41,370 nt of DNA from a virus. Shown in pieces: positions 1,594 through 30,299 of this stretch. The position numbers were made by a program, and so were the translations under genes. The DNA lies in the IMG/VR virus record IMGVR_UViG_3300045988_025431, positions 1 to 41,370 of that record; one strand, 5' to 3'. The number at the start of each line of letters is the position of its first letter. The stretch's first letter is position 1. The notes beneath the pieces were generated by a model, which worked only from the letters and a program-made list of their open reading frames with translations, was not told the origin of the DNA and did no database searches.

Positions 1594-1938
1594 CTATTTC
1601 AGCCGGGGGAATTTGGTGAAACCGCCCGCTTTCCCCTTCTGAGGGGTCTGTGAGCCGTTCTGTGCGCCGCCAAGGATCTTGTTAGCATCGGAGCGCAAAG
1701 CCTCCGGTGTGGTCCCCAGAAGGCCGCACAGGGCCTTTGCCTGCATGGTCTTCCCATAGCGAGCATACAGGCTGTTGGCAATATTGGGATCAATGCCCAG
1801 CCGTCTGGCTGTGCTCTGGACGCCCTCCAGCGTGTCAGCCGTCCCGCTGATCGCCTGCTCCGCCTTCTGCACCGCGTTTTGCAGGTCGGCGCTGGGGAAC
1901 ATCTTCGACGCGGCCGCTATGATCTGTTTGAGATCCAT
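1594..1938 (-). CDS. hypothetical protein (114 aa)
   Basis: Track ORF with an AAGGAGCTGAAGG RBS before the ATG. G/C-rich third codon positions are typical of this genome. Confidence 0.6.
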   Translation of the reverse strand: MDLKQIIAAASKMFPSADLQNAVQKAEQAISGTADTLEGVQSTARRLGIDPNIANSLYARYGKTMQAKALCGLLGTTPEALRSDANKILGGAQNGSQTPQKGKAGGFTKFPRLK

Positions 1939-2672: not shown

Positions 2673-5600
2673 TTATTTCCCGGCCAAACGGGCGTTCTTC
2701 CGGACTTTCTCGTTTACAAGCGCCTTGTTGTAATGCCGGATGCTTTTGCCTACCCCCAGATACTCAAAAAGTGCGTTCCGCTGCTTCTCGCTCAAACCGG
2801 GCATATTGTACACCGCCTGCATGATCAGCAGCCCCTTGCTGTTGGGGATCGTCTCCCCGTTTCTGTCCTTGACGCTTTCCAGATCGGACACCTGCGTTTT
2901 CAGCGCCACATAAATTTCCGGCTTAATGCCGTACTTCTTCTGTGCCTCCTGTGCTTTCAACACCCACTTGTCCGTGATCTCATAGGTTTTGTCCGTCTCG
3001 TGCAGTGCTGTCTTTTTGGCGTAGGTCTCCGCGCTGGACAGGGCCTTGTCCTTCTGCTCGTCAGTGAAGGCCCTGAACACCTGGCTGTCCTCCAACCCGG
3101 ATTCCATGGAGCTGTAAAGCGCGGACTTCCTGCGGCTGTATACGATGTAGTCATCGGAGCTGAGATCGTTTTCCGTAAATTTGTCCTCGCCCTCGCCGGT
3201 GCCGTACCGGTCTTTCGCACCAATCAGACTTGCAGCCGCGTCCGGGAGCCTGAAATCCTCATCGTTTTCCCGTTCCTTGTCCAGCTTGCTCCGCATACTG
3301 CTGTCAACGGAGCTGTTGTCCAGCGCCATGAAGTCTTTTAGCTCTTTGCGGATGTGTTCATAGGTGGTCAGGTCGCCCTGCTCCAGCGCCTTGAACGCGA
3401 GATTCAGGTACCGGCTTTTGTTTGCGGTGCTGTAAATATTGTATGTGAATTTCTCAAACTCATATTCCAGCGCCACGCTGCCGGTAGCTTGGACAGCCGT
3501 CCGGACTGCCGCCATTGCGTCCCGCTTGATGTTGGCCACCGGAAGGCCGAAAAGTTTAGAACAGGCTGCAAACATATTTGCCAGCGCTTCTTCTCTGGTC
3601 TTTTTGCCGCTGCCGCCCATGCTTGCGGTGAAATCTTTAGAGGCAGATACAATGTCAGAAAACACCTGCATGTCCGTCCGGGATACGCTGTACCCCTGCG
3701 TCAGGGAAAGAATATCCTTTACAAACGGGATGCTTCCAAGCTTGTTGACGTTACTCCCAAGGTTTCCTTCCAACACAATATGCTGCAGCAGCTCCTTGGT
3801 GGCCTTCTCGTCACCGGTAATGCCGGTCAGTGCCGTCAGGAACTTTTCCCAATAATCCTTGTCCGGATCATCGTCACGCCCTGCGTCTGCAATGCTCTGG
3901 GCCAGTGCGTTAACTACGTCCGTAACCAGCAAAGCAGCTGCCGCACGTCCCACGGTTTTAATGGCCTTGCTCCGCTTGGCAGGGTTCTCTTCATAGCGCA
4001 TATTGTCCCATGCCCGCATGAACACGTTCAGGCTCATAATGGGTTCGCCCATGAACGATGTCGCCTGCTTGGCAAGGTCGCTCTTGCCGCGCATGATGTT
4101 GGAGCGCTGCAAAATGCCGTCTACCACCTGCGTCTGGTCGATCATGTCGGTGAACACTTCATTGACTGCGCTGTAAAATTCGCCGCTTCCGGCCCGCAGA
4201 TTGGGCCTCTCCCGCTTCACCTGCCACTCGCAGGCGTTCCAGAGTGCGCCCCAGGTAACGGCGTCCGCTTTTCCTGCGGGAGCGCCAGCCTTGTCATTGA
4301 TCTTGTTGGCGATGCCCTCCTTGCCGTAAAACCGATCATTCAGGGTATAGGGGGAGGAAATGTCAAAGCTGCCCACATCCTTCCGCATGGCAATGGGAGA
4401 ATGCGTCAAAGCTTTTTCCCAGCCGTTTCCCTTCGTCACGCCGCCGGTCAGTCCTCTTGCCATGTCAGCAGGGTCCAATACGGCGGATGCCCGGAAAAAG
4501 GCGGTCGGCTGCTGGATGACCACACGCACGTTCGCACCGACGGCAGCGCCCTTAAAGCTCCCGATGCCTTTTGCGAATTTATCCGTCAGCGGTTCAAAAT
4601 CCTTTGTTTTGATTCCGTTCTGGATGTCGCCCATCAGCTTCTGCCAGTACTGCTGAGATCCCTGTCCGCCCTTCTCTTCCAGGAAGCCCTTTACGGTCTG
4701 AACGAGATTGCCTTCACTGTCCCGGAACTGGAAATTGTACAGCCGGTTCGCGTCCTCCATGGGGCACAGCCACGCTGCGTAGTCAATCATATCGGATGCG
4801 TGGTCCGCGAAGGTGTCAAACACCCCTCGGATGCTCAACGGCGTCGCCGCGTTGGGCTTTACAGCCTGCGCCATGCCGATATTCTTAATGGAGCGCACAT
4901 TCCCGCTGTCCTTCTCCTGCGAACTGTGCAGTGCTTCCTTTGCGGATTTGATGGGCCAGTAGTCCTGCTCCGTGAATTTCTTATAGCCGTAGGCTTTCAT
5001 GCTGGCCTCGTTGCCGTAGTTGGCAAGAACACCGGTGGTCAGCTTCTGCAAACCGTCCGCGATCCTGATCTGCTCCGGGGTCAAAACCCTCACAATGGAC
5101 TGGATATCCTCTGCGGAAAGATGGATCACGTCCGTTCCTCTGGGGATCTTGGTCTTGCCGGGGATCTTGATCTCCGGCTGCACGATGCCGCCTTTCAGCA
5201 GGTGGTCCTCCGCCTGCTTGCGTTCGCTCAGAAGATACAGCTCCATGGCCTGTGCCGTGGTCAGGTCCAGCTCATGGCCTTCCGTTGTGGTGAAATGGTG
5301 GACTTCCTCATTCATGGACGTCACCGCGTTTTCGCGGATGCCGGTTTTCGCGTCGCCCAGAATCTGGTGAACCTTCTCCGCCACATCCCGCGCCATGATC
5401 TCCTGATGGTCCTGCGCGTTCCGCAGCATCCGGTAAATGTCCTTTCCGGTCTGGCCGAAGTGGGCAAAGAACGTATAAGGCGTTTCCAGACTGATCGCCA
5501 CGTTGTTCCCCAGTTTCCGCCGCCGGGTCATGCCGTCCATGCGGAGCGCATCAGCAAACTGCTTGGTGGTCTCGAATTTCTCCGACGCTAGCGTCTTGCC

Positions 5601-8600
5601 TGCCGTGGTCACGGAATGCTCCACGGATTTCAGCACGTTCCACATAGTTTTCAGCTGCTCCGTGGTCAGATCCGCAAGGCGGGTGTCCCCCATCTTGATG
5701 ACCTCGCTGAATCCACCGGTCACATCGTCGCCGCCCAGAAGAGACGGGTCCACCACCATATCGCCATCCTGGGCGATCTTCTGATACTGCTCCTTCAAAT
5801 TCTGGAACGCCACCGTCCGGTTCGTCGGCGTGCCAGGTTCCTTGTAGATTCGCTCCCCTGTCACGGGGTCCAGCGTAAAGGACCGTGCATTGGGGCTGCT
5901 CTCCTGATTGATGCTTTCCAGCACCTTTGCCACGGCGGAGCGCATATCTTCCGGAATGTGCTGGTTGTCCGTGGGCCGCAGCAGCTTTTGAGACAATGCG
6001 CTGGCATGGCGAACAATCTTAGCCCGCAGTTCTCTCCGCTTCTGGTTGTCCCGCCGGGTCACGTCCTTCTCCCGGTAACGCTCCTTCAACGTCTGTACCT
6101 GCTCCGCACGCCGGGTCCGTTCCTTTGCCAATGCCTGCGCCGTGCTTCTTAGCCGCTTTGCGTCTTGTCTGCCTTGGGCCATCTGTCCAGCTAAAAAGGC
6201 GTCATTTGCCGCCTGTCTGCCCTGAAATCTGGCATCCTGCACCTGCTCCGCTGCCCGGTCCGCAAAGGTCTTTTTCGTCTGAGGAAGGTCAAAGAACCGG
6301 TCCATAATGTCATTGGAGATAGACGCCACGGCCTGTCCCATGTAGCCTTCAAAGGGGTTGTACTCCGTCACCTTGTACAGCCGGTTCGCCACGTCCGCGA
6401 TCCGCTGCACCTGATCGGAGATGTTGGTCTCCTGTGCCTCGTTGAAAAACTCCGGATACTGGCTGGACAGCTCGGAATAGATCTGGTCAACATTGGTGTG
6501 CTCGCCCTTGCTGATTTTCAACTTGCCGAACAAGCTCTTGCGAAACTCGTTGAAATCCGTGATCTCGGCGGCATCCGCTTCCGTCAGCGTCAGCTTGATG
6601 TCTTTCAGATACTTCCGCAGACCAGCGTATTCCTTGAATGCCCGATCGTCCACCTCTACGGCGCTTTCCGCGATCCGCTCCGCAATGGCATCAGACCGTC
6701 TCCGCGCCTCTGCATAGGTCAGCTCGTCCTTGCCGTCCTTGCCGCTGGCAATGTAGTCATACAGGCTTTGCAGGTCTCCGGCAATGTCGCTGCCGCTGAT
6801 CTCTGCGCCGTAGTCCTTTACCAGCGCGTCCGCCGCCTTCTGAACGGATTTCCGGTCGGTGGTTACGCCCTGAGACCGTCTGGTCTGGCCCTTCCAATAC
6901 TCAACCCGCTCTTTCAGGCTCTCGTTTTCCCGTTTCAGCGCCGCAATCTCCTGCGCGTTCTCCGTGCCTTTCAACGATAGGAACTGCGCCAATTCCGAAA
7001 CATGGGGCTTCGTGCCATCTTTGAAATATGCTTTGATGTCATTCAGCACCTTGCTGGAATGGGTCCCCCTGGGATATTCCGTGCTGGAAACTGTCTGCCC
7101 ATCCGGGGTGTCCAGATCAAGAATGACTTCGCCCCGGTTTTTACCGATAAAGTCCGACAGTGCATCCATCTGGGATTTTGTTGGCTCCACAGAGAGGTTG
7201 ATCCCGCCGCTTTCCGGGGAAATGCGGATATTGCCCTCGCTCATAAACTGCACCATAGAGCCGGAATAATCATCCCCACCGTAATCCTCACCGATAGCGT
7301 CCCGGATGTCCCGGTGGTCTACGGTCCGGTATCCGCCAGGGCCGCCCTCGTGCTTGCCGGAGAAGTCCAGCTTTGTGCCTGCCGGGGTCAGATATCCGGT
7401 CTCGTTCCAGTTGTAGGTTTTGCCGAAAAACGCGATTGCCTTTTTCCGGTGGTCCCGCTGCTCCGCATCGCTGTAATCTTTCAGGGAATATCTGGTCTTT
7501 TCTTTCGCCTTTTCAAAGGCTTCTTGCATGGCGGTCTTACCGCTGCCCTCTCCAAAGGAAAGATTCCCATTGACATCCCGGTTCACATATGTTATTCTAC
7601 CAATAGAACCATACTTGGTTAACCCCGATGGCAATTGGAGCCGTAGGGCCTCTAACCAAGCATCGGTTCTTTTTTTGTTTGGATCAACGTATAAGATTTC
7701 AGAAGTATTGATCGCGTTTTGTGCGTTTCGCTTGCCATATGCGCTTGCGATTTTGGCGAAATCAAGGATCTCTCCCCGCTTATCCTGCGGGCGCAATTCC
7801 AATGCAACCAATACGGGGGAACCCTCTGCATCCATTACTTCTCCGTAAATCGTGATACGATTCGCCACGGTCTGGGATTGCATGACTAAAATGGGATACT
7901 CTAAAATCTGCGGCACATTTTTAATGACATCCGCTGTCATTTCTGGATGCTTGGACAGGATTTTTGCAATTTTGCTCTGATCCCAATAGATCTGATAATC
8001 GTTAACCCCGATAGACTTTAAAGCCTCAGAAGTCGTACCAACCTTGAAGTAACCGCCGGTTTTCAGGTTGCCTTTTTCATCCCTGTCATTTACCCAAGCA
8101 TCAAACTGTCTGGTGAAATCTTTATTCAGGGAATATCTCGCCTCACCGTCCTCCGTGGCGGTGTTTTTGCTGTTCAGACTTTCCGCCTGCTTGCTGGCCG
8201 CTTCAAATGCCGCCTGCAGCTTGCCCTCCACGGTCTGGGCCTGTCGCTTGGCTCTGCCGGTCAGCTTGCCCACGATCTCGTGGATGGCGTCCCGCAGCTT
8301 TTGCAGCAGCGTCCGGTCTGCGCTGTGCTTCCGGATAAAATCGTCCAGCACGTCGCTGTTGGCAATCATCTCACCGGCGTAGTTGGCGGTAGCCTCGTCC
8401 AGCGCCTGTTCGTAGCTGGTTTCAACGCCCGCCCGGTTGTACTGGTCAAGCAGGATGTTCGCCGCTTCCTGCACGTCCGGCATACTGGTAACAGCGTTCC
8501 GGAACGCCCGGTACTGCTCCGGGGCCAACTCCTGCACCCGGTGCGTCCATTCATGGCCGACCACCTGCAAAGCCGGGTCTGCTGCGTCCTTGGCAATCAG

Positions 8601-10619
8601 AACGTCGCTGCCGTTGATCTGGCCGTTGGCCTGCCCGCTCAGCACCTGATCTACCATCCGCGTCCGCACGCCCAGTGCCTTTGAAACAGTGTTTACCTCG
8701 TCGGCAACGGTGCTGTCCATTTCACGGGAAACATAATCGTCAAACACAAGGCCGCTGTCCGTTCCGGCGGTCTTGGCAAACTGCGCCGCCCGCTTTTCTC
8801 TTGCAAGAGACGCTGCCGCGTCATTCTGCCCTGCCGCATACGCCGCAAAGGATACCGCGCTGGTGCTGTTTGGATTCTTCTGGTTGGTCATGCCTGCGTG
8901 ATACGCCCGCAGAAATTCCCCAGCGTAGTCACCACGGTCCGTCCCCTGATACGCCGTCTGAAACGCCTTCCTGCCGCTGTCCCCCAGCTTGTCTGCAATA
9001 CCGGTAAAGGTTTTCTGCACGGCGGCTTCTCGCTGCCGCAAAACCTGTTCCTCCATGGAAACGGGATTGCTCACTGTTTGCCGCTGGACGGCTTCCTGAA
9101 TGGCCCTCTGCGCGCTTTCCTGTGGGACCTGTGCGTCCATTTGTGCGGGGGTGGTACGTGTACCCTCCTGAACGTCTGCGCGCTCCTGTACGCCCTGCTG
9201 TGCGTCCTGCTGTGTGGCCTGCTGTGTGGCCTGAGTGGAGTATTTATTTGTGCGGTAAATGTTTGCGCTATCAAGTACAGTAGACGGTAATCCAGCTACG
9301 CCAAAAGACAATGCTGCCGATGCCGCCGTATCTTTTAACCGGTCAATAACTTCTCCACTGGAATATGCCCACTGCCCGTTATCAGTCTTATTTGCAATCT
9401 GTGCGCCAGCAATAGTACTGCCTTCCTGCAAAACTTCCTGTAAAGTTTCATTCCCTAAAGAAAGAGACCGATCAATCAAATATTGGCTTAGTCTTTTGGA
9501 GGCGTTTCCCGTAAGTGGGTTGTTCTTCAAAATTTGTACGGACTTTGCCAGTTCGTCTAATTGGAGTGCTTCCAGCCCTGCATTAACGCCGCCAACAATG
9601 GCTGCAACGTTTCGTGCGGTCTTTTCGGACACACCATTTTCCAACATTTCATTATAAGCAAGCCCCGCTTCGATCTCATAATTCTTTTCCGCGGAAGCAA
9701 TTTTGAGGCCCGTCATAAAAGCGGTTGGAACTGTAACCACTTCTTCAGGAACAAGCGCCTGCGGGCCTGCTTGCCCCGCAATAGCCGCACCCGTTGCCGC
9801 CGTTGTTCCCGCTGCCAATGCCGTCGGGTTCGTCATCTGGTATACCTGTTGCCCCAGTAATGCGGCTGCTCCGGATATTGCTTCTGCCAGTTTTCCTTGC
9901 GGAACAAATTTATAATCTTCCCCCGCCAGAATATCTGCATACTTTTGTTTATCGGTTTTCCGCCCATTCATGCTTTTATAACTCTCTTCGCCATAGCGAG
10001 AATTATAATAGCCTTGCTTGGCGGAATTGATTAGCAAATCTTTAAGATCGGCCTCTCTATACCCCCCAGAAGCTAAAAGTTCTTTGTTTTTTGCTTCTTT
10101 TTGAGCTTCCGCCTGTTTTTCGATTTCGGCGGTCAATCTGGTGCGAGTAATATATTGCTTTTCAGTATCTTTAAGCTGTTTAGCATCGTACCGGCTATTG
10201 GGAGTTGCCGCGTTCCGGCTCACCTGCCCCAGCTGACCGGCATAAGAAGTCTGCCGAGACTGTGCATTTTCCGCAACGCGGCCCGGTGCCTTATTCTGCG
10301 TGGCAATCTCAAAGAAGGACTTTTTCTGTGCAGATGGCTTGTTCTTCCCGGCGTTCGTGGTGCTTTTTCTACCGCCATTGGTGGCCTTCCACTGCTGACG
10401 GCTGGGCGTAGTGCTGTTGCTGCGCGCCGGGCCTCGCACAGTAGGTTTTTGCGTCTGGGTTGGAGTCTTAACATCAGACAAATCCCCGCCCCACGCAGTC
10501 GTTACTTTTCTGAATACCGGCTTATCAGAGGAACGGGCAGTATTTGCCCGCTCCTCCTTGTTCTTTTTCTGGCTTTCCGCCGCAGTTGTGACTTTCCGAA
10601 ATACAGGCTTTGTCGCCAT
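2673..10619 (-). CDS. giant polyvalent virion/ejected protein (2648 aa) with a Zn-metallopeptidase HExxH motif
   Basis: Uninterrupted ORF with a TAAGGAGG RBS. HEWTH lies at residues 689-693 (8541-8555). A HPEMT...ILEYP nuclease-like module spans about residues 855-1000, and a YLTPAGTKLDFSG...DHRDIRD module about 1060-1200. It sits last in the ejection-protein position. Confidence 0.85.
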   Translation of the reverse strand: MATKPVFRKVTTAAESQKKNKEERANTARSSDKPVFRKVTTAWGGDLSDVKTPTQTQKPTVRGPARSNSTTPSRQQWKATNGGRKSTTNAGKNKPSAQKKSFFEIATQNKAPGRVAENAQSRQTSYAGQLGQVSRNAATPNSRYDAKQLKDTEKQYITRTRLTAEIEKQAEAQKEAKNKELLASGGYREADLKDLLINSAKQGYYNSRYGEESYKSMNGRKTDKQKYADILAGEDYKFVPQGKLAEAISGAAALLGQQVYQMTNPTALAAGTTAATGAAIAGQAGPQALVPEEVVTVPTAFMTGLKIASAEKNYEIEAGLAYNEMLENGVSEKTARNVAAIVGGVNAGLEALQLDELAKSVQILKNNPLTGNASKRLSQYLIDRSLSLGNETLQEVLQEGSTIAGAQIANKTDNGQWAYSSGEVIDRLKDTAASAALSFGVAGLPSTVLDSANIYRTNKYSTQATQQATQQDAQQGVQERADVQEGTRTTPAQMDAQVPQESAQRAIQEAVQRQTVSNPVSMEEQVLRQREAAVQKTFTGIADKLGDSGRKAFQTAYQGTDRGDYAGEFLRAYHAGMTNQKNPNSTSAVSFAAYAAGQNDAAASLAREKRAAQFAKTAGTDSGLVFDDYVSREMDSTVADEVNTVSKALGVRTRMVDQVLSGQANGQINGSDVLIAKDAADPALQVVGHEWTHRVQELAPEQYRAFRNAVTSMPDVQEAANILLDQYNRAGVETSYEQALDEATANYAGEMIANSDVLDDFIRKHSADRTLLQKLRDAIHEIVGKLTGRAKRQAQTVEGKLQAAFEAASKQAESLNSKNTATEDGEARYSLNKDFTRQFDAWVNDRDEKGNLKTGGYFKVGTTSEALKSIGVNDYQIYWDQSKIAKILSKHPEMTADVIKNVPQILEYPILVMQSQTVANRITIYGEVMDAEGSPVLVALELRPQDKRGEILDFAKIASAYGKRNAQNAINTSEILYVDPNKKRTDAWLEALRLQLPSGLTKYGSIGRITYVNRDVNGNLSFGEGSGKTAMQEAFEKAKEKTRYSLKDYSDAEQRDHRKKAIAFFGKTYNWNETGYLTPAGTKLDFSGKHEGGPGGYRTVDHRDIRDAIGEDYGGDDYSGSMVQFMSEGNIRISPESGGINLSVEPTKSQMDALSDFIGKNRGEVILDLDTPDGQTVSSTEYPRGTHSSKVLNDIKAYFKDGTKPHVSELAQFLSLKGTENAQEIAALKRENESLKERVEYWKGQTRRSQGVTTDRKSVQKAADALVKDYGAEISGSDIAGDLQSLYDYIASGKDGKDELTYAEARRRSDAIAERIAESAVEVDDRAFKEYAGLRKYLKDIKLTLTEADAAEITDFNEFRKSLFGKLKISKGEHTNVDQIYSELSSQYPEFFNEAQETNISDQVQRIADVANRLYKVTEYNPFEGYMGQAVASISNDIMDRFFDLPQTKKTFADRAAEQVQDARFQGRQAANDAFLAGQMAQGRQDAKRLRSTAQALAKERTRRAEQVQTLKERYREKDVTRRDNQKRRELRAKIVRHASALSQKLLRPTDNQHIPEDMRSAVAKVLESINQESSPNARSFTLDPVTGERIYKEPGTPTNRTVAFQNLKEQYQKIAQDGDMVVDPSLLGGDDVTGGFSEVIKMGDTRLADLTTEQLKTMWNVLKSVEHSVTTAGKTLASEKFETTKQFADALRMDGMTRRRKLGNNVAISLETPYTFFAHFGQTGKDIYRMLRNAQDHQEIMARDVAEKVHQILGDAKTGIRENAVTSMNEEVHHFTTTEGHELDLTTAQAMELYLLSERKQAEDHLLKGGIVQPEIKIPGKTKIPRGTDVIHLSAEDIQSIVRVLTPEQIRIADGLQKLTTGVLANYGNEASMKAYGYKKFTEQDYWPIKSAKEALHSSQEKDSGNVRSIKNIGMAQAVKPNAATPLSIRGVFDTFADHASDMIDYAAWLCPMEDANRLYNFQFRDSEGNLVQTVKGFLEEKGGQGSQQYWQKLMGDIQNGIKTKDFEPLTDKFAKGIGSFKGAAVGANVRVVIQQPTAFFRASAVLDPADMARGLTGGVTKGNGWEKALTHSPIAMRKDVGSFDISSPYTLNDRFYGKEGIANKINDKAGAPAGKADAVTWGALWNACEWQVKRERPNLRAGSGEFYSAVNEVFTDMIDQTQVVDGILQRSNIMRGKSDLAKQATSFMGEPIMSLNVFMRAWDNMRYEENPAKRSKAIKTVGRAAAALLVTDVVNALAQSIADAGRDDDPDKDYWEKFLTALTGITGDEKATKELLQHIVLEGNLGSNVNKLGSIPFVKDILSLTQGYSVSRTDMQVFSDIVSASKDFTASMGGSGKKTREEALANMFAACSKLFGLPVANIKRDAMAAVRTAVQATGSVALEYEFEKFTYNIYSTANKSRYLNLAFKALEQGDLTTYEHIRKELKDFMALDNSSVDSSMRSKLDKERENDEDFRLPDAAASLIGAKDRYGTGEGEDKFTENDLSSDDYIVYSRRKSALYSSMESGLEDSQVFRAFTDEQKDKALSSAETYAKKTALHETDKTYEITDKWVLKAQEAQKKYGIKPEIYVALKTQVSDLESVKDRNGETIPNSKGLLIMQAVYNMPGLSEKQRNALFEYLGVGKSIRHYNKALVNEKVRKNARLAGK

Positions 10620-25436: not shown

Positions 25437-26873
25437 TCAGTATTTCCGGAACCATGCGTAATCCCGGTCCTCCGGCTCGTCCGCGTCCAGAGGGCTGTAC
25501 GGCTTCACCGCTGCCGGAACCCGAATGGTCTGCGCCACCGGGTATTCCATGCACATATACCGGCACTCGTCATAAATATGGTCCTCGCCGTCGGTGTCCA
25601 CGTCCTCAACGTCCGTCTCGCTATATACCAGATTCGGCACCGTCCGGATGAAATGCCTGCAGGTGTCGAACACATACAGCATGGGGATGCCCTGCCCATC
25701 AAAGGCTAGTCGGTTGTGTATCTGCATCTTCCCGTTCAGCCGGTCATGCTGTCCGGCCTCCCAAAACACGCCCTTGCGCTCCATCACCGCCGCCACGCTC
25801 TCCGTGCCACTGTTGCCGAAGATGGCCGGGTCTGCCACGCCCCGCACCGTCCGCCCCTGCAAATTGGGGTCCTCCCGCTCAATGCGGCGTATTTCTTCCG
25901 CCACATGGTCCGGTGTCCACTTCACGCCCTCATTGGGCGTTCCCGTGCAGCCGTACAGTTCCCGGATGCGGTAAAGCCGCCGGTCCTGATCCACGGCGTA
26001 CCAGCCCACGGAGAAGGGCCGCGTATAGCCCCAGTCCATCGCCCGCCACACATTCCAATTTCCCGGGATACGGAAGGGTTCGATGACGTGGGTCTTGATA
26101 TGGTCTCTGTAATGCTCACGGTCATTGATCCATTCGCGGAACACTTGGCCGGAAAAGCTGTCCCAGTTGCCGTCCAACAGCGCTGCACGCTCCGCCTCCG
26201 GCAGGGACGCCAGGTTTAAAATGTAGTTGGGGTCATTCCGCAGAAGCGCGGCGTTGTCCGTCACCTTTGCCGGAATGAAGATCCGGCTGCGCCTGCCCTC
26301 CTGCTTTTTGCCGTCAGCCCCCATCCAGGAAACATCCTGCCAGATGGTCTGCATGGGCGGAGCCGCCGTGATAAAGCGGTCTTTCACCCATCCGTGGCCG
26401 ATGCCGCCGGGGTTCGCCGTGGCCCGCATATAAACCCGTGTTCCCGGTCCATTGGGCCGGTTCCGGGAAAACATGTAGCTGTATTCCTCCCAGGTGAAAT
26501 GGGTCAACTCGTCAAACGCGATAAAGTCATACGCCTGTCCCTGATATTTCACGCGGTCTTTGGTGTACTGCATGGAGCCGAAAATGATTTTCGCCCCGCT
26601 GGGGAATGACCATGTGTGGCTGCTGCCGTTGTATCTGGCTTTCGGGTATACGCGCGGATAATAGGAAAGCGTCTTGTCAATCAGCTCCGCCAGCTGCGGA
26701 TAGGTCTTTCGCAGGATCAGACCCTTGTACCACGGGATATCCACCTGCCGCAGAGCCTCGATCACCAGTGCGTCGCTCTTGCCGCCTCCGGCAGCGCCGC
26801 CATACAGCGCCTCCCATTCCGGGCGGCTCATAAAAATAGCCTGTCTCGGCTGCGGCGTCCAGACAACATTCAC
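25437..26873 (-). CDS. terL: terminase large subunit
   Basis: Walker A motif GGAAGGGKSD near the N-terminus and a nuclease-type C-terminal half. It overlaps terS by 4 nt. Confidence 0.9.
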   Translation of the reverse strand: MNVVWTPQPRQAIFMSRPEWEALYGGAAGGGKSDALVIEALRQVDIPWYKGLILRKTYPQLAELIDKTLSYYPRVYPKARYNGSSHTWSFPSGAKIIFGSMQYTKDRVKYQGQAYDFIAFDELTHFTWEEYSYMFSRNRPNGPGTRVYMRATANPGGIGHGWVKDRFITAAPPMQTIWQDVSWMGADGKKQEGRRSRIFIPAKVTDNAALLRNDPNYILNLASLPEAERAALLDGNWDSFSGQVFREWINDREHYRDHIKTHVIEPFRIPGNWNVWRAMDWGYTRPFSVGWYAVDQDRRLYRIRELYGCTGTPNEGVKWTPDHVAEEIRRIEREDPNLQGRTVRGVADPAIFGNSGTESVAAVMERKGVFWEAGQHDRLNGKMQIHNRLAFDGQGIPMLYVFDTCRHFIRTVPNLVYSETDVEDVDTDGEDHIYDECRYMCMEYPVAQTIRVPAAVKPYSPLDADEPEDRDYAWFRKY

Positions 26874-27280
26874 AGCTTTTCCTCCGGCAGCACCGACGGC
26901 ATTTGCACCACGCCGGTACCCGCTTCATCCGCGCCCCTGCCCTGTACCTGCGTCCACTTGTCAATCAGGGTCCCTAACGCCGTTGTGATCTGGCTGGGCG
27001 TTGCTTCCGCCAGCTTCTCAGGGTCATTCAGTACCGCCAGCCCCTTTCCGATGATCTGGCATACAATGTCCCGCTGGCTTTCCATGTACGCGAGAATGTC
27101 CGCTGTGTTCTGGTCTTTTTTCTGTTCCAGTTTTTTCTCGACTTCTCCCGCTTCTTTCAGGACTTTGTTCGCGGCGTCCCACGAAACCTTGTTCTTTTTC
27201 GCGGCAGCATTCACTGACTGCGTTTCCAGATAGTCCGCCAGTATTTTCTTTTTCTGCCGGTCTGTCAGACGCGCAGCCAT
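26870..27280 (-). CDS. terS: terminase small subunit
   Basis: N-terminal HTH-like segment (LTDRQKKKILADYLETQSVNAAAKKNKVS) and a position immediately upstream of terL. The start is set at ATG 27280, after a GAGGTGG RBS. Confidence 0.7.
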   Translation of the reverse strand: MAARLTDRQKKKILADYLETQSVNAAAKKNKVSWDAANKVLKEAGEVEKKLEQKKDQNTADILAYMESQRDIVCQIIGKGLAVLNDPEKLAEATPSQITTALGTLIDKWTQVQGRGADEAGTGVVQMPSVLPEEKL

Positions 27281-27289
27281 TGTCACCAC

Positions 27290-27940
27290 CTCGCACTTTT
27301 ATTTGCTACCAGCCCCCACCCCTTGGCCTTACATAGCAGACTTTACCCGCCCCGAAGGGCTACAACACCGCCCACATTGGGCGCTATTCTTTTCACAGGT
27401 CCCGGCATTGCGATCTGTTTGAATTGCTTACACAGCGGCCTAATCATACGATTGCCGCCACCACGCCACATCCATTGAACGCCTCGGCACTCGCGCAGAT
27501 TGTAGCAATGCCGGTATCCCACGGAACTTTTCAGCCCTGCGCCGGTATGTCGGTCGCATCCGTTTCTTCATTCATAGGCCGGAGCCAGCAAAATAATGAT
27601 TATTCGCCCTGCCGCTTTCATACAGCGCACAGGCAAGCCCCTTGTAGCGGTCTTACCCTTCCGCGGTGCCGCAATGCGGTAGCATACATCTGGTACGGCA
27701 TTGCAGTCCTGCCCTGCTTTAGCGCTTCAGGGAAAATCCCCGTCACTCGCTGTGGCCTCCCCTTACGGGGCACCTATGCCGTGAATGACTCCCCTGGGCC
27801 ACATCGTAGAGAGGTGTGGGGAGTCCTGTGCCGCATGGCGGGTGCGACCCGCCGCCCCTGATCGTGGGGTACATCGTGCGTGCGGCATATAGTCCCCGGC
27901 ATTCCGCCGGGGTTGGAGAGAGAAAGGATGAAAATGGAGG
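27290..27940 (-). ncRNA. candidate large structured RNA / late-operon leader (strand assignment tentative)
   Basis: No credible ORF in any frame. Many perfect GC-rich helices are present, including a three-way junction. On the minus strand, cUUCGg and GUAA tetraloops cap two hairpins. It is bounded by the early terminator and the terS RBS. Confidence 0.45.
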
Positions 27941-27977
27941 AAAGAAAAGGATGTGTGAGATACACTCCCACACATCC
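27938..27977 (-). terminator. intrinsic terminator ending the early operon
   Basis: Stem GGATGTGTG/CACACATCC (27949-27957/27969-27977), extendable by 3 pairs. On the minus strand it is followed by UUUUCUUUCCUCC. Confidence 0.7.
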
Positions 27978-28023
27978 ATTGTCGCACTGTTCAACAGCGT
28001 TTTTCCCCTTAAAAGGGGAATTT

Positions 28024-28269
28024 TCAATTTTTATTATGAGGCGCTGAAATATTTACCATCAGTGGATAATCCGTCCGCCCCATGAGATAGTCAACAGACA
28101 CCCCCAGTTCATCCGCAAGGTTTTGAAGGGCATCCATAGACGGCGTTGCTTCGCCCATTTCATAACGCCGCACAGCGTCCGAATGTAGGCCGCACCGTTC
28201 CGACAACACATACCGCTTTATCCGCTTCTGCTCCCTCAACTGCCGCAGCCGCTCCGGGAATGTACTCAT
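28024..28269 (-). CDS. XRE-family HTH protein (81 aa), last gene of the early operon
   Basis: Start trimmed to ATG 28269 (GAGGTG RBS). Motif: FPERLRQLREQKRIKRYVLSERCGLHSDAVRRYEMGEATPSMDALQNLADELGVSVDYLMGR. Confidence 0.75.
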   Translation of the reverse strand: MSTFPERLRQLREQKRIKRYVLSERCGLHSDAVRRYEMGEATPSMDALQNLADELGVSVDYLMGRTDYPLMVNISAPHNKN

Positions 28270-28282
28270 GTTATCACCTCGG

Positions 28283-28480
28283 TCATACGCACTCCCCAAT
28301 TCCCCGCAGCAGTGCCACCAAGTCATAAAAACAATGCGGGTCTAACCCGGTCTCTTTCTTGATGCGCTCAAACCTGTAGTCCGCCGTATTGCGGTGCATA
28401 TAGACCTGCCGTGCAGCCTGCTCCAGGATCATGTCGTTTTCCGCATATGCCCTTAGCAGGGCTTTGTCATCGCTTGTCAT
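28283..28480 (-). CDS. small HTH protein (PucR/CdaR C-terminal-like), 65 aa
   Basis: ILEQAARQVYMHRNTADYRFERIKKETGLDP resembles a PucR-type HTH. The RBS is GGGAGG. Confidence 0.55.
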   Translation of the reverse strand: MTSDDKALLRAYAENDMILEQAARQVYMHRNTADYRFERIKKETGLDPHCFYDLVALLRGIGECV

Positions 28481-28820
28481 GTTGCCTCCCATATGTCACT
28501 TTCCGCAGTTCGTGATACCGCTCCGGGAATGGTCTTAACTCCTGTTTGCCGCCGATGATCTGGGCCATCACCCGGTCCATGTGCTCCTGCATCACGTCCG
28601 CCGCCGGGTCGTTGGAATTGAGGGCGGGCGTGTACTCCTTTTGGGTCTGCTGCCACGCCTCCGTCAGCCGCATGATCCGGTCATACCCCCAGCCCTCCGT
28701 CTGGTGGAGGGTCATTTGCAGGGTATCGATCATGTACTGGGAGGTTAGCCGCTGGGCGGCGTCTACTTTCGCCTGGGCGAATTGCTCGGCAAAGGCAATC
28801 ATGCCGGATTGTTTAGCCAT
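28467..28820 (-). CDS. hypothetical protein (117 aa)
   Basis: Start trimmed to ATG 28820. It overlaps the neighbouring genes by 8 and 14 nt. Confidence 0.55.
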   Translation of the reverse strand: MAKQSGMIAFAEQFAQAKVDAAQRLTSQYMIDTLQMTLHQTEGWGYDRIMRLTEAWQQTQKEYTPALNSNDPAADVMQEHMDRVMAQIIGGKQELRPFPERYHELRKVTYGRQHDKR

Positions 28821-29112
28821 CCCCGCCGTCCTTTCTTTCGCCGTGACTGCAAAAGCCATCTGGCGGCATTGGTTCGAATGTTTCCCAGCAGATGGGGACG
28901 TCTCTGGTTCCGGGTCCCCAATCTTTACAGTCCTTGCAGCGAAGTACCTGAACCACATCGGCGGCAGGCAGCTTGCCGATAGCAATTTCAGCTTCACACA
29001 ACTTGCGATACATTGCGTGTTCAAAGCCTTTGAATGGCTTAAACTGCTGAAATTCGTTCTCTAATTCGATCAGCAGATTGACCACTTTGTGTTTCTCGAT
29101 GTACTCATCCAT
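28813..29112 (-). CDS. Cys-rich small protein ending FCSHGERKDGGDG
   Basis: Track ORF with CxxC motifs. It is one member of a three-gene family in this window. Confidence 0.6.
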   Translation of the reverse strand: MDEYIEKHKVVNLLIELENEFQQFKPFKGFEHAMYRKLCEAEIAIGKLPAADVVQVLRCKDCKDWGPGTRDVPICWETFEPMPPDGFCSHGERKDGGDG

Positions 29113-29113
29113 C

Positions 29114-29257
29114 TTATTTCCTCCCCAACAAGTACAGTTTCAGCCACAGGGGGATGTCGGCGGTCAAAATGCTTTTGAAATAAAACACGATAAACGCAAT
29201 GCCAGCGGCTATAACCAGCGTCCAAAAGGCTATAATCAGCCAGTCTTTCAACTTCAT
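29114..29257 (-). CDS. small membrane protein (47 aa, MKLKDWLIIAFWTLVIAAGIAFIVFYF...)
   Basis: ATGA overlap with the upstream stop, and its stop lies 1 nt before the next ATG. It has a single clear TM segment and is below the track cutoff. Confidence 0.5.
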   Translation of the reverse strand: MKLKDWLIIAFWTLVIAAGIAFIVFYFKSILTADIPLWLKLYLLGRK

Positions 29258-29595
29258 TCAGCACCGCCATCCTTTCTCTCGCCGAAGCCGCAAAAGAACG
29301 TCCTTGTGTCCTTATCAAATGGCAAAAACGCGATGTTTGTTTTAGGGCAAAATGCGTACATATCTTTTCGATTCCACACGCACAAATGCTTGCAGTCCTC
29401 ACACCGCACCACAGGCACAACACCCTTCCTTGCATCGTCGAAACCTTTCTGATACTGCTCACGGTCATAGCGGAGCGCTCGGATTAGTTCATCCCTATCA
29501 ACGGTAATGTCAGCCCGCTGCACGGCTTTGAGAATTTCACCCTCAAACTGCATTTCAAGATTTCCTTGGAATACTTTAATTGGCGATTCATACAT
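29254..29595 (-). CDS. Cys-rich small protein ending FCGFGERKDGGAE
   Basis: Start trimmed to ATG 29595 (GGAGGTG RBS). It carries RCEDCKH and C-terminal Cys motifs. Confidence 0.6.
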   Translation of the reverse strand: MYESPIKVFQGNLEMQFEGEILKAVQRADITVDRDELIRALRYDREQYQKGFDDARKGVVPVVRCEDCKHLCVWNRKDMYAFCPKTNIAFLPFDKDTRTFFCGFGERKDGGAE

Positions 29596-29866
29596 GGTCA
29601 GCACCTCCGTCCATCTTTGCCCCGCAGTTGGGGCAGTAATTGCTTCTGCGATCATTCCACATATCGCAGCAGCTTGATACACCTCCTTCGGCAACAGTAA
29701 CACCGCTTCTATAATGGTCCATCCACCGCCCATGCACCACCGGCGCAACGTCGGCGGCTGCTGGCGAGGCAACAATCTCCATTGCCATGGCACCGTCGTA
29801 ACCGTCCACCCATTTCGCCGCCATCACCGCTTTTACGGCAGTTTCCCGGTCAATGTATTCAGCCAT
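29588..29866 (-). CDS. Cys-rich small protein ending YCPNCGAKMDGGADHV
   Basis: Start trimmed to ATG 29866 (AGGAGGG RBS). The motif AADVAPVVHGRW is followed by a zinc-ribbon-like tail. Confidence 0.6.
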   Translation of the reverse strand: MAEYIDRETAVKAVMAAKWVDGYDGAMAMEIVASPAAADVAPVVHGRWMDHYRSGVTVAEGGVSSCCDMWNDRRSNYCPNCGAKMDGGADHV

Positions 29867-29868
29867 GG

Positions 29869-30069
29869 TCAGCCCTCCTGTTTCAGCTCTTGCACAGTCT
29901 GGTGGATACGCTTCGCGCAGGCAGGGCATATTTCCCTCACATCCACTATGACATCCACTATGTCCGGGACGCTTGCGTAAATGCCAGCGTTGTTCTCCAT
30001 GCTGACCTTATAAGTTTCCTGAAGATTGTGTATTTCTTTCCCGCAAAGATCACAAAAATGCTTAGTCAT
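29869..30069 (-). CDS. zinc-ribbon small protein (66 aa)
   Basis: CDLCG...CPAC motif, with an ATGA overlap with the upstream gene. Confidence 0.55.
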   Translation of the reverse strand: MTKHFCDLCGKEIHNLQETYKVSMENNAGIYASVPDIVDVIVDVREICPACAKRIHQTVQELKQEG

Positions 30070-30299
30070 GTTCTTTCCCCCCTCCTGTTCCACGCCTCAG
30101 TTACGGCGTTTTCACAGATTTCACGCTCGTTATATTTCCCGTTAGGCATATTGATGCCGACAACAGGACTTCTCGCATGGCATTTCATACACCGGATGCT
30201 TACGGAACAATGTTTCTCCCAACCGTTCTGAAAAGTGCGCTTGCTGTCGATTTTGAGATTTGTGCCGCCGCAGAACGGGCACGGTTTTAGTTCAGCCAT
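30066..30299 (-). CDS. lar: Lar-family restriction alleviation protein
   Basis: MAELKPCPFCGG...IRCMKCHA...AVTEAWNRR matches the Lar-family signature. Confidence 0.75.
   Translation of the reverse strand: MAELKPCPFCGGTNLKIDSKRTFQNGWEKHCSVSIRCMKCHARSPVVGINMPNGKYNEREICENAVTEAWNRRGERT

Follow-up and report, generated by a model that had tools for sequence, protein, structure and literature searches.

The stretch analysed here (hereafter the window) is the IMG/VR viral record IMGVR_UViG_3300045988_025431 over its whole length of 41,370 nt, in which a gap devoid of credible genes (27290-28023) separates two small helix-turn-helix (HTH) genes from the packaging genes and holds an island of predicted structured RNA modules. 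All positions below are window coordinates and the modules are read on the minus strand. The genes flanking the gap are likewise all on the minus strand and correspond, in order of reading, to a small PucR-type HTH_30 gene (28283-28492), a small Xre-type HTH_3 gene (28024-28326), the gap itself, a gene encoding 139 amino acids (aa) and terL (25437-26873), the domains being those assigned by Pfam (Terminase_6N for terL). The 139-aa gene (26870-27289; 136 aa when counted from the ATG at 27280) overlaps terL and is a putative terS, a label that depends on position alone; its product has zero Pfam matches and only a weak and implausible match to RIIB in PHROG (E 4e-4). The start of this first late gene (27278-27292), taken from the list of open reading frames (ORFs) and from the sequence, comprises the ribosome binding site (RBS) GAGGUGGUG at 27284-27292 and the ATG at 27280.

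Both HTH genes, and the intrinsic terminator that closes their operon, are found where the original prediction, made from the letters of the window, had placed them, upstream of 27290-27940. On the minus strand this terminator consists of a 12-bp stem (27949-27977) followed by a T run that extends to ca. 27939, as detected in a terminator scan, and a different terminator-like hairpin with a U tract occupies the same place in L001, a relative that is 81% identical to the window. The view that 27290-28023 contains no believable gene was upheld: a Pfam search of the ORFs lying within it gave no match and the longest of them, of 145 aa on the plus strand, has no counterpart in L001, in which the longest ORF over the equivalent region is on the opposite strand to that of the window.

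The original prediction further described ca. 650 nt of the gap as one folded RNA, a candidate late or packaging leader just past the early terminator. A folded RNA rather than a coding sequence in this position is supported by our analyses, but a single RNA is not: the gap is made up of at least four separable modules (A, B, C and D, in order from the terminator to the RBS), each of which stands alone in other phages at varying offsets. When parts of the gap were compared by blastn with related loci, A, B and D each proved to share the strand of C while their offsets varied, and compensatory changes among related phages, which the original prediction had proposed as a test, were found in A, B, C and the first hairpin of D. 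On this comparative evidence, not on folding energy, the predicted structure of the gap exceeds chance. Against deposited phages, blastn returned three human-faecal phage contigs. The alignment of L001 to the window shows ca. 320 nt that are 97% identical next to late genes that are unrelated, a tRNA-Gly where the window has module B, and compensatory changes in the three-way junction of module A.

Element C (27394-27690), as delimited by comparison, is a 297-nt ornate RNA lying between B and D. It was traced with an 18-mer drawn from its most conserved stretch (27522-27539, minus strand), which occurs in at least 119 viral contigs, all from the viral collection; here and below, the contig counts of C, B and D are lower bounds and the figures given per locus apply among the matches listed. 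These matches include 105 distinct cores with a median of 62% identity to the window. The 5' domain of C (27578-27633) contains two hairpins joined and flanked by A/U-rich linkers, namely the covarying CCUGUGCGCU-GUAUGAA-AGCGGCAGG (27608-27633) and GCUGG-N-CCGGC (27578-27589), the latter with an invariant U-G pair, and the 5'-most part of the element varies between subfamilies. The core that follows, of ca. 43 nt (27521-27563), reads ACGGA[UGCG-A-CCG..CGG-CGCA]GG[GCU-GAAA-AGU]UCCGU, so that a stem ACGGA/UCCGU closes two hairpins, UGCG-A-CCG...CGG-CGCA and GCU-GAAA-AGU, the second having a GNRA loop. In all 90 distinct sequences compared (90/90), the core is identical at every column outside the inner CCG/CGG stem and loop, and a scan for divergent cores that demanded a change just after GAAAAG returned a single contig. 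Such invariance of the core suggests catalysis or the binding of a conserved partner as possible roles.

The 3' domain of C (27397-27520), as defined with a covariance model, is formed by a long closing helix that pairs 27496-27520 with 27397-27417. Its length is 15-25 bp and its sequence is wholly different between subfamilies, and it encloses the conserved words CCGAGGCG, GG-N-GUGG-Y and GUGUAG together with an apical two-step hairpin (27434-27459). It includes the 10-bp long-range pair 27402-27411/27505-27514 pointed out in the original prediction, and here compensatory changes are seen at all 10 positions. The helices of C were tested by duplex search, register count and covariance model. 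In the 5' domain, 97.6% of the cells are paired, as compared with 92.7% in shuffled and 34-55% in slid alignments, and 10 out of 29 pairs are compensatory with 106 cells changed on both sides, a result reached by 0 of 500 shuffles. For the 3' domain the corresponding values are 95.3% against 74.0% (shuffled) and ca. 40% (slid), percentages that are inflated because the alignment was fitted to the model structure, with 26 out of 34 pairs compensatory over 579 cells, again reached by 0 of 500 shuffles. The covariance model of the 3' domain, R1, built from 21 window-type sequences, gave a full-length match in 94 of 98 loci, with one copy per locus. The closing helix has unfitted support from folding 14 subfamily representatives one by one and from a register count anchored on its conserved flanks, where 59% of the cells are paired versus 42% in shuffled sequences and where positions 4-8 show 4-6 pair types each. 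Finally, locus comparison shows that a small hairpin on the 3' side of the insertion, GCGCCC-AAUG-UGGGCG (27369-27384), travels with C: it is present in the C-type inserts and absent from L139, a relative in which B and D are fused.

Element C is closely associated with tRNA genes. These occur within ca. 500 nt of C in 72 of 122 loci and all of them (90/90) are on the strand of C. On the upstream side, the closest tRNA stops 146-179 nt short of the 18-mer, and on the downstream side the closest one begins 132-207 nt beyond it. Among 112 distinct loci, tRNAs of many identities adjoin C directly, 41 times on its upstream and 25 times on its downstream side, and C always comes after a tRNA or tRNA-like gene that ends in CCA. 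These distances and the abutting tRNAs indicate that C is a discrete unit of 300-400 nt within phage tRNA arrays. The strand, on which the original prediction had been tentative, can now be set as minus, the same sense as terS and terL, because the 90 neighbouring tRNAs are co-oriented with C and because the G-U pairs that never vary exist in that sense only, as they would become A-C mismatches on the other strand.

Rfam 15 yielded no match in the window at gathering thresholds, and at E values up to 10 no relevant one over 27150-28150 (1001 nt), 27290-27695 (406 nt) or 27675-27795 (121 nt), and 21 related loci gave tRNAs and unrelated motifs only, with no ROOL or GOLLD at E values up to 0.1. 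Membership in ROOL or GOLLD, offered as one option in the original prediction, or in HEARO or a ribozyme class thus finds no Rfam match; the genomic setting, in a phage and beside tRNA genes, is that of ROOL and GOLLD. By these searches, C is a widespread structured RNA family that is absent from Rfam. It is new in the sense of having no entry in Rfam 15 and no description in the literature that could be searched; fragments of these modules may be present among the 10,006 candidate structured RNAs of viruses that have been catalogued from IMG/VR (PMC10690425). The literature consulted likewise yielded no description of a tRNA-like or structured RNA located upstream of terminase genes. Likenesses noted by eye to the CR-I of RNase P, to a T-box sequence, to domain 5 of group II introns and to the hammerhead core were dropped, as Rfam lends them no support and the order of their motifs is wrong. 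Another recurrent module, seen in L003 (2710-3157, minus strand), in L170 and in L139 (12380-12470), displays the words GGAAGCGUAAAAAGCU and GCUGAAAACUGC(A)CCGUGGG, which resemble the 5' hairpin and the core of C in a different order, so that it may be a distant or permuted relative of C or be unrelated to it. The L003-like module, with its core-like words (GCUGAAAACUGCCGUGG and GGAUGCG), is not claimed as a homologue, R1 giving no match to it.

In a scan of the GTDB genomes, the 18-mer of C gave 14 matches, which is about the number expected by chance according to our own estimate, and only four of the 14 have the flanking C core: two Oscillospiraceae metagenome-assembled genomes (MAGs), one Oscillibacter and one Eubacteriales MAG. 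The remaining ten, which come from Bacteroidales, Proteobacteria and other groups and lack the flanking core, were discarded; of these, only L123 was run against R1, with no match. The four genomes with the flanking core place the hosts among gut Clostridia, in Oscillospiraceae and related lineages.

Module B (27691-27782) lies directly upstream of C and is predicted by RNAalifold, from 95 distinct sequences, to fold into a 92-nt cloverleaf with a 3' ACCA tail. A 23-mer representing it occurs in at least 119 viral contigs. In the consensus cloverleaf, 10 out of 26 pairs are compensatory, mostly in few sequences. The acceptor-like stem has 7 bp (ACGGCAU/AUGCCGU) and is followed by ACCA, its first pair covaries (AU in 20, GC in 33 and GU in 39 sequences) and conservation of the tail positions is at least 75-97% across the 95 sequences. 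The other arms are a compound arm GGU-G-CCCC-GUAA-GGGG-AG-ACC, a third arm of ca. 30 nt that is interrupted by an internal loop and capped by a triloop (GGGGA-UUU-UCCCU in the window and GGGGG-CUU-CCCCC in L003) and a fourth arm of 4 bp with a 7-nt loop. As in a tRNA, a 7-bp acceptor stem is thus followed by a discriminator position and CCA, but a triloop occurs where an anticodon arm would have its 7-nt loop. Neither ARAGORN, which found 0 tRNA genes in the window, nor the Rfam tRNA model, which gave no match over 27675-27795 at E values up to 10, recognizes it; module B has the shape of a tRNA without being one by either model. In one relative, L150, a skipping-rope RNA (RF02924; 51.3 bits for a gathering score of 36.7) is found directly upstream of B (1603-1697, plus strand), which indicates that known orphan RNA motifs share the island.

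Module D (27302-27360) closes the leader. In 96 distinct sequences it is composed of a c(UUCG)g hairpin and the stretch GGGUAAAGUCUGCUAUGUAAGGCCAAGGGGYGGGGGCUGGUAGCAAA, is at least 97% conserved over ca. 60 nt, and loses this conservation sharply before the RBS; an 18-mer of D occurs in at least 119 viral contigs. Between its end and the next ORF, whichever gene this may be, there are 45-57 nt (mode 47), and this first ORF falls into no fewer than five unrelated families, namely the window-type 139-aa protein (found after D in ca. 49 related loci), a ParB-methylase, an HTH-type small terminase, a gp3-type small terminase and an unknown protein. D thus goes with the beginning of the late operon and not with any one gene. 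Variants of its first hairpin keep the pairing, with GCCC/GGGU in 12 loci, ACCC-UUUA-GGGU and GCCC-GUUA-GGGC; the change from GGGC to GGGU introduces a G-U pair that is neutral only for an RNA and would be a mismatch on the other strand, and ACCC/GGGU is fully compensatory. Further on, the purine run CAAGGGGUGGGG is predicted to form a duplex of -11.0 kcal/mol with the anti-Shine-Dalgarno (anti-SD) sequence, as compared with -12.9 for the real RBS, and no ATG, GTG or TTG is found within the next ca. 15 nt. Between D and the RBS, the sequence contains no terminator-like hairpin with a U tract.

Motif scans returned matches to B and D that are mostly without C. In L139, L141 and L150, B and D are joined through a 24-nt linker, and the window aligns to L139 as a contiguous B-D with an insert of ca. 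330 nt, corresponding to C and the small hairpin, between CCAGAUGU and GCCCUUCGGGGC. Across loci the interval from B to D falls in discrete classes: no insert beyond the 24-nt linker, a hairpin (59 nt), a piece with a sub-threshold DUF3800-VIII match (137 nt), other modules (154-162 and 184-186 nt), a further spacing class (207 nt), an insert containing tRNA-Trp (218 nt), element C (346-401 nt), and three tRNAs plus C (865 nt). These classes make the site after the 3' end of B a slot for interchangeable cargo, with one to three real tRNA genes in some relatives, and B-D a scaffold of ca. 165 nt with a cargo slot, common to many gut Oscillospiraceae phages. In another locus, L309, real tRNAs lie directly upstream of D and on the same strand. 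With regard to individual loci, the B-D slot of L169 contains (2777-2840, minus strand) the match to the DUF3800-VIII RNA (RF03075; 36 bits for a gathering score of 40.2, E 0.007), L141 has a gut-2 RNA at 8796-8842 that scores 35.3 bits and remains under the gathering score, and L150 has at 7221-7327 an SpF41 small RNA whose 54.3 bits exceed it.

Module A, the most upstream of the four, has two parts. The first is a three-way junction of the form GCCGCA...[CCCC-N7-GGGG][GGCGGGU-CGC-ACCCGCC]...UGCGGC (27830-27886), known from 51 distinct homologues. The original prediction had drawn this junction correctly except for its closing stem, which is placed here at 27830-27835/27881-27886, a shift of one base. 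Over the 51 sequences, 6 out of 16 pairs are compensatory, with 0-2 unpaired cells per pair. The module is on the strand of C in each of the 13 loci that contain the 18-mer, one further locus being without the 18-mer, and its offset from C ranges from -285 to -1897. The second part (27787-27825) is an 8-bp hairpin, the stem 27787-27794/27818-27825 of the original prediction, with the loop CCUCUCUACGAUG; in L001 it retains 7 of its 8 pairs with one compensatory change. This hairpin resembles the abiF motif (RF03085) in its loop words CCUCUC-ACGAUG and in its stem geometry, and differs from it in that its score of 22.5 bits (E 0.27) is below the gathering score of 37, as is the 17 bits of a similar hairpin in L139, and in that no abiF gene is found nearby. 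In L139 (12200-12313, plus strand) the abiF-like hairpin is followed by a non-canonical tRNA-like gene that scores 35.6 bits with the tRNA-Sec model, under its gathering score of 47, an order that mirrors the one in the window, where A precedes B, and in L001, where it precedes a tRNA.

Several smaller elements named in the original prediction are also present in the window, although not all are conserved. These are the 7-bp stem 27894-27900/27906-27912, the repeats it listed, including four copies of GCAATGC/GCATTGC, and the two hairpins with cUUCGg (27349-27360) and GUAA (27759-27770) tetraloops on the minus strand. The 7-bp stem corresponds to a GC hairpin, CCCCGGC-GGAAU-GCCGGGG (27894-27912), in a pyrimidine-rich spacer, and the stretch that contains it (27891-27940) is found in only two other loci. 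Alternative pairings through the GCAATGC motif are not conserved either, the helix sequences being different in other subfamilies. As neither is conserved, both the recurrence of this motif and the 7-bp stem are probably incidental.

Of the 152 loci that carry B or D, 82 have an Xre-type HTH gene upstream of the island and 118 have there a member of a small zinc-ribbon protein family; this family has no Pfam or PHROG match. In the window itself, four overlapping or adjacent small ORFs with CxxC zinc-ribbon-like motifs (28813-30093, minus strand) look paralogous. On the 3' side of the island, the packaging modules of relatives are unrelated to one another, with Terminase_6N or Terminase_3 large subunits and small subunits of the gp3 type or of PHROG 51, and an HU-like protein or a ParB-methylase is also found there. 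Spurious ORFs overlying the RNA, which a first clustering of neighbouring genes had returned, were discarded. Two further features of the window may be mentioned: a perfect hairpin TTCCCCTTAAAAGGGGAA (28003-28020) that directly follows the HTH stop codon, upstream of the main minus-strand terminator, and that reads as a plus-strand terminator with no plus-strand gene nearby, and a single ORF of 2648 aa (2673-10619, minus strand), unusually long for a phage region of ca. 41 kb.

Three known systems help in interpreting these data. In phages and prophages, ROOL and GOLLD occur close to tRNA islands (PMC5737381, PMC12286853). Like them, C is phage-encoded beside tRNA genes, has several multistem junctions and no associated protein, and is a dispensable cargo; it differs in being unmatched by their Rfam models, in its length of ca. 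300 nt versus ca. 580 or more than 800 nt, and in its near-invariant core of ca. 43 nt, whereas ROOL has been described with few highly conserved nucleotides (PMC5737381). Having neither sequence, size nor detectable structure in common with ROOL and GOLLD, C is placed in the same kind of context but as a member of neither family. A second likeness is to phage tRNA arrays. The tRNA cluster of T4, with its species 1 and species 2 RNAs, is a phage tRNA array that contains co-processed stable RNAs. Here as in such arrays, RNA genes follow each other head to tail on one strand, presumably to be released by RNase P and 3' processing, and C is flanked by tRNAs in relatives; the window differs in having no canonical tRNA according to ARAGORN, in that non-tRNA modules fill the array, and in that B is tRNA-shaped without a 7-nt anticodon loop. 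The third is the STAB-SD of cry3A, which blocks RNase J1 through 30S binding (PMC4113751). Module D has the corresponding elements in the 5' untranslated region, that is, a stable hairpin and a Shine-Dalgarno (SD)-like run that lacks a usable start, is predicted to pair with 16S rRNA and lies upstream of the true RBS, but its ca. 60 invariant nt go far beyond what a stabiliser needs, and a stabilising role for D is one that we infer from this likeness.

Taking these data together, we lean with moderate confidence towards the view that the island is the leader of the late operon, on the minus strand, and serves as an expression site for cargo RNAs that would be freed by tRNA-processing enzymes. 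The island would be transcribed together with the late genes, as is suggested by tRNAs occupying the same slot, which must be transcribed, and by the absence of a terminator between these tRNAs and D. RNase P and the 3' tRNA-processing enzymes would then cut at B and, in relatives, at the real tRNAs, so releasing the cargo RNAs as stable folded molecules that may work in trans, the mode of action assumed for ROOL and GOLLD. Module D would remain as the 5' end of the late mRNA, which its hairpin and non-initiating SD-like run could protect in the manner of STAB-SD in Bacillus. That C is cargo rather than a cis regulator is suggested by its presence or absence between identical flanks. More tentatively, C might represent a third, as yet undescribed class of ornate phage RNA in the niche of ROOL and GOLLD, its core being catalytic, macromolecule-binding or an assembly interface, with B-D as a dedicated swap slot and the tRNA mimic as processing handle; this extended proposal is a possible one that we rate below an expression site as such.

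Several observations weigh against a folded and processed cargo RNA. The folding energy of the region (661 nt) is close to that of shuffled sequences, with z-scores of -0.87 on the minus and -1.05 on the plus strand and of -1.18 for the core; since neither the whole region nor C is significant and these scores do not separate the region from shuffled sequence, the "densely base-paired" character given to it in the original prediction cannot be argued from energy, and folding energy was dropped as evidence. Apart from the fitted alignment of the 3' domain, the unfitted tests (single-sequence folds and register count) back the closing helix of C only. A scan for sigma-70-like promoters between the terminator and module A gave none from which transcription might enter the island in the window phage. 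Cutting of B by RNase P is an assumption, as tRNA models do not recognize this module. Finally, covariation in D is confined to its first hairpin, and its 60 nt are invariant, a pattern that a DNA site or a protein-binding site would fit equally well.

The alternative that best survives, although we consider it unlikely, is that the whole region, or at least D, is a cis-acting leader of the late operon that controls antitermination, attenuation or translation, perhaps together with the upstream Xre-type HTH protein. The near invariance of D, its fixed spacing relative to the first late gene, the terminator that precedes the island and the HTH gene present in more than half of the loci, as counted above, would all agree with such a role. 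It is less easily reconciled with the varying positions of A, B and C, with the occurrence of C between tRNAs away from D, and with a slot that can be empty or filled with unrelated inserts between the same flanks, which implies that the inserts are dispensable for regulation. Nor is a terminator-like structure seen between D and the RBS. Processive antitermination past the early terminator, suggested in the original prediction, appears unlikely, as all conserved modules are 3' and not 5' of that terminator and C, the largest of them, is dispensable in relatives; for put-like RNAs this bears on the early terminator and not on terminators further downstream. A T-box leader has no Rfam match here and would again lack a terminator between D and the RBS; the UGGU of D, which could pair with ACCA, never varies.

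It is improbable, in our judgement, that D acts as a DNA-level site, either a late promoter with an activator site or a cos or pac site, and that only the upstream modules are RNA. Sites for cos or pac and late promoters usually lie just upstream of terS. This is the place that D occupies, with ca. 60 invariant nt devoid of covariation and with an HTH regulator conserved nearby. A pac or cos site co-varies with its terminase, however, and the same D is found before unrelated small-terminase families and before first genes that do not encode a terminase; between the window and L001, D and C are kept in the ca. 320-nt stretch before unrelated terS and terL. The pac recognition region that the original prediction had listed among its options is therefore disfavoured, since the same elements stand before five or more unrelated first late genes and before several families of terminase, and a phi29-type packaging RNA (pRNA) is not matched in Rfam at gathering thresholds or at E values up to 10. 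With respect to a promoter, the scan found no sigma-70-like hexamers in D. The hairpin of D tolerates G-U in the 12 loci mentioned above and has one fully compensatory variant, and the tRNAs directly upstream of D in L309 imply that D is transcribed unless an unseen terminator intervenes, all of which speaks against a DNA-level site.

It also seems very improbable to us that C is mobile, being an intron-like or ribozyme RNA that splices or cleaves itself and was inserted after a CCA end. Its presence or absence at one site just past the ACCA tail, its constant position after a CCA-ending gene and an invariant core of the kind seen in catalytic RNAs might be read in this way, but no intron or ribozyme model of Rfam matches it, the boundaries of the insert are blurred by microhomology (GAUGUAUGC / GUUGUAGCCC) and carry no U/G splice-site signature, and many unrelated inserts, plain tRNAs included, occupy the same slot. 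The idea that ROOL or GOLLD has a divergent member in C, or in the 650 nt taken as a whole, can practically be set aside, for although a large multi-junction RNA by tRNA genes in phages and prophages fits their niche (PMC5737381, PMC12286853), neither 121 to 1001 nt of the window, searched at E values up to 10 with permissive filters, nor the 21 related loci at E values up to 0.1 gave a match, and C has ca. 300 nt when ROOL averages 581 nt and many GOLLD RNAs exceed 800 nt.

Large structured RNAs of no known function are rare, and ROOL, GOLLD, OLE and raiA have each opened new biochemistry, RNA-only nanocages among it (PMC12286853). Element C is compact and abundant in human-gut viromes, with a rigid core and clear covariation, which would make it tractable for studies of structure and of the function of a cargo RNA. 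The expression site that we favour, with its B-D slot, suggests how phages may gain and express tRNAs and other RNAs without disturbing the expression of their late genes. For annotators, the island may also serve as a marker of the boundary between early and late genes in Oscillospiraceae phages, at a place where gene callers now put spurious ORFs.

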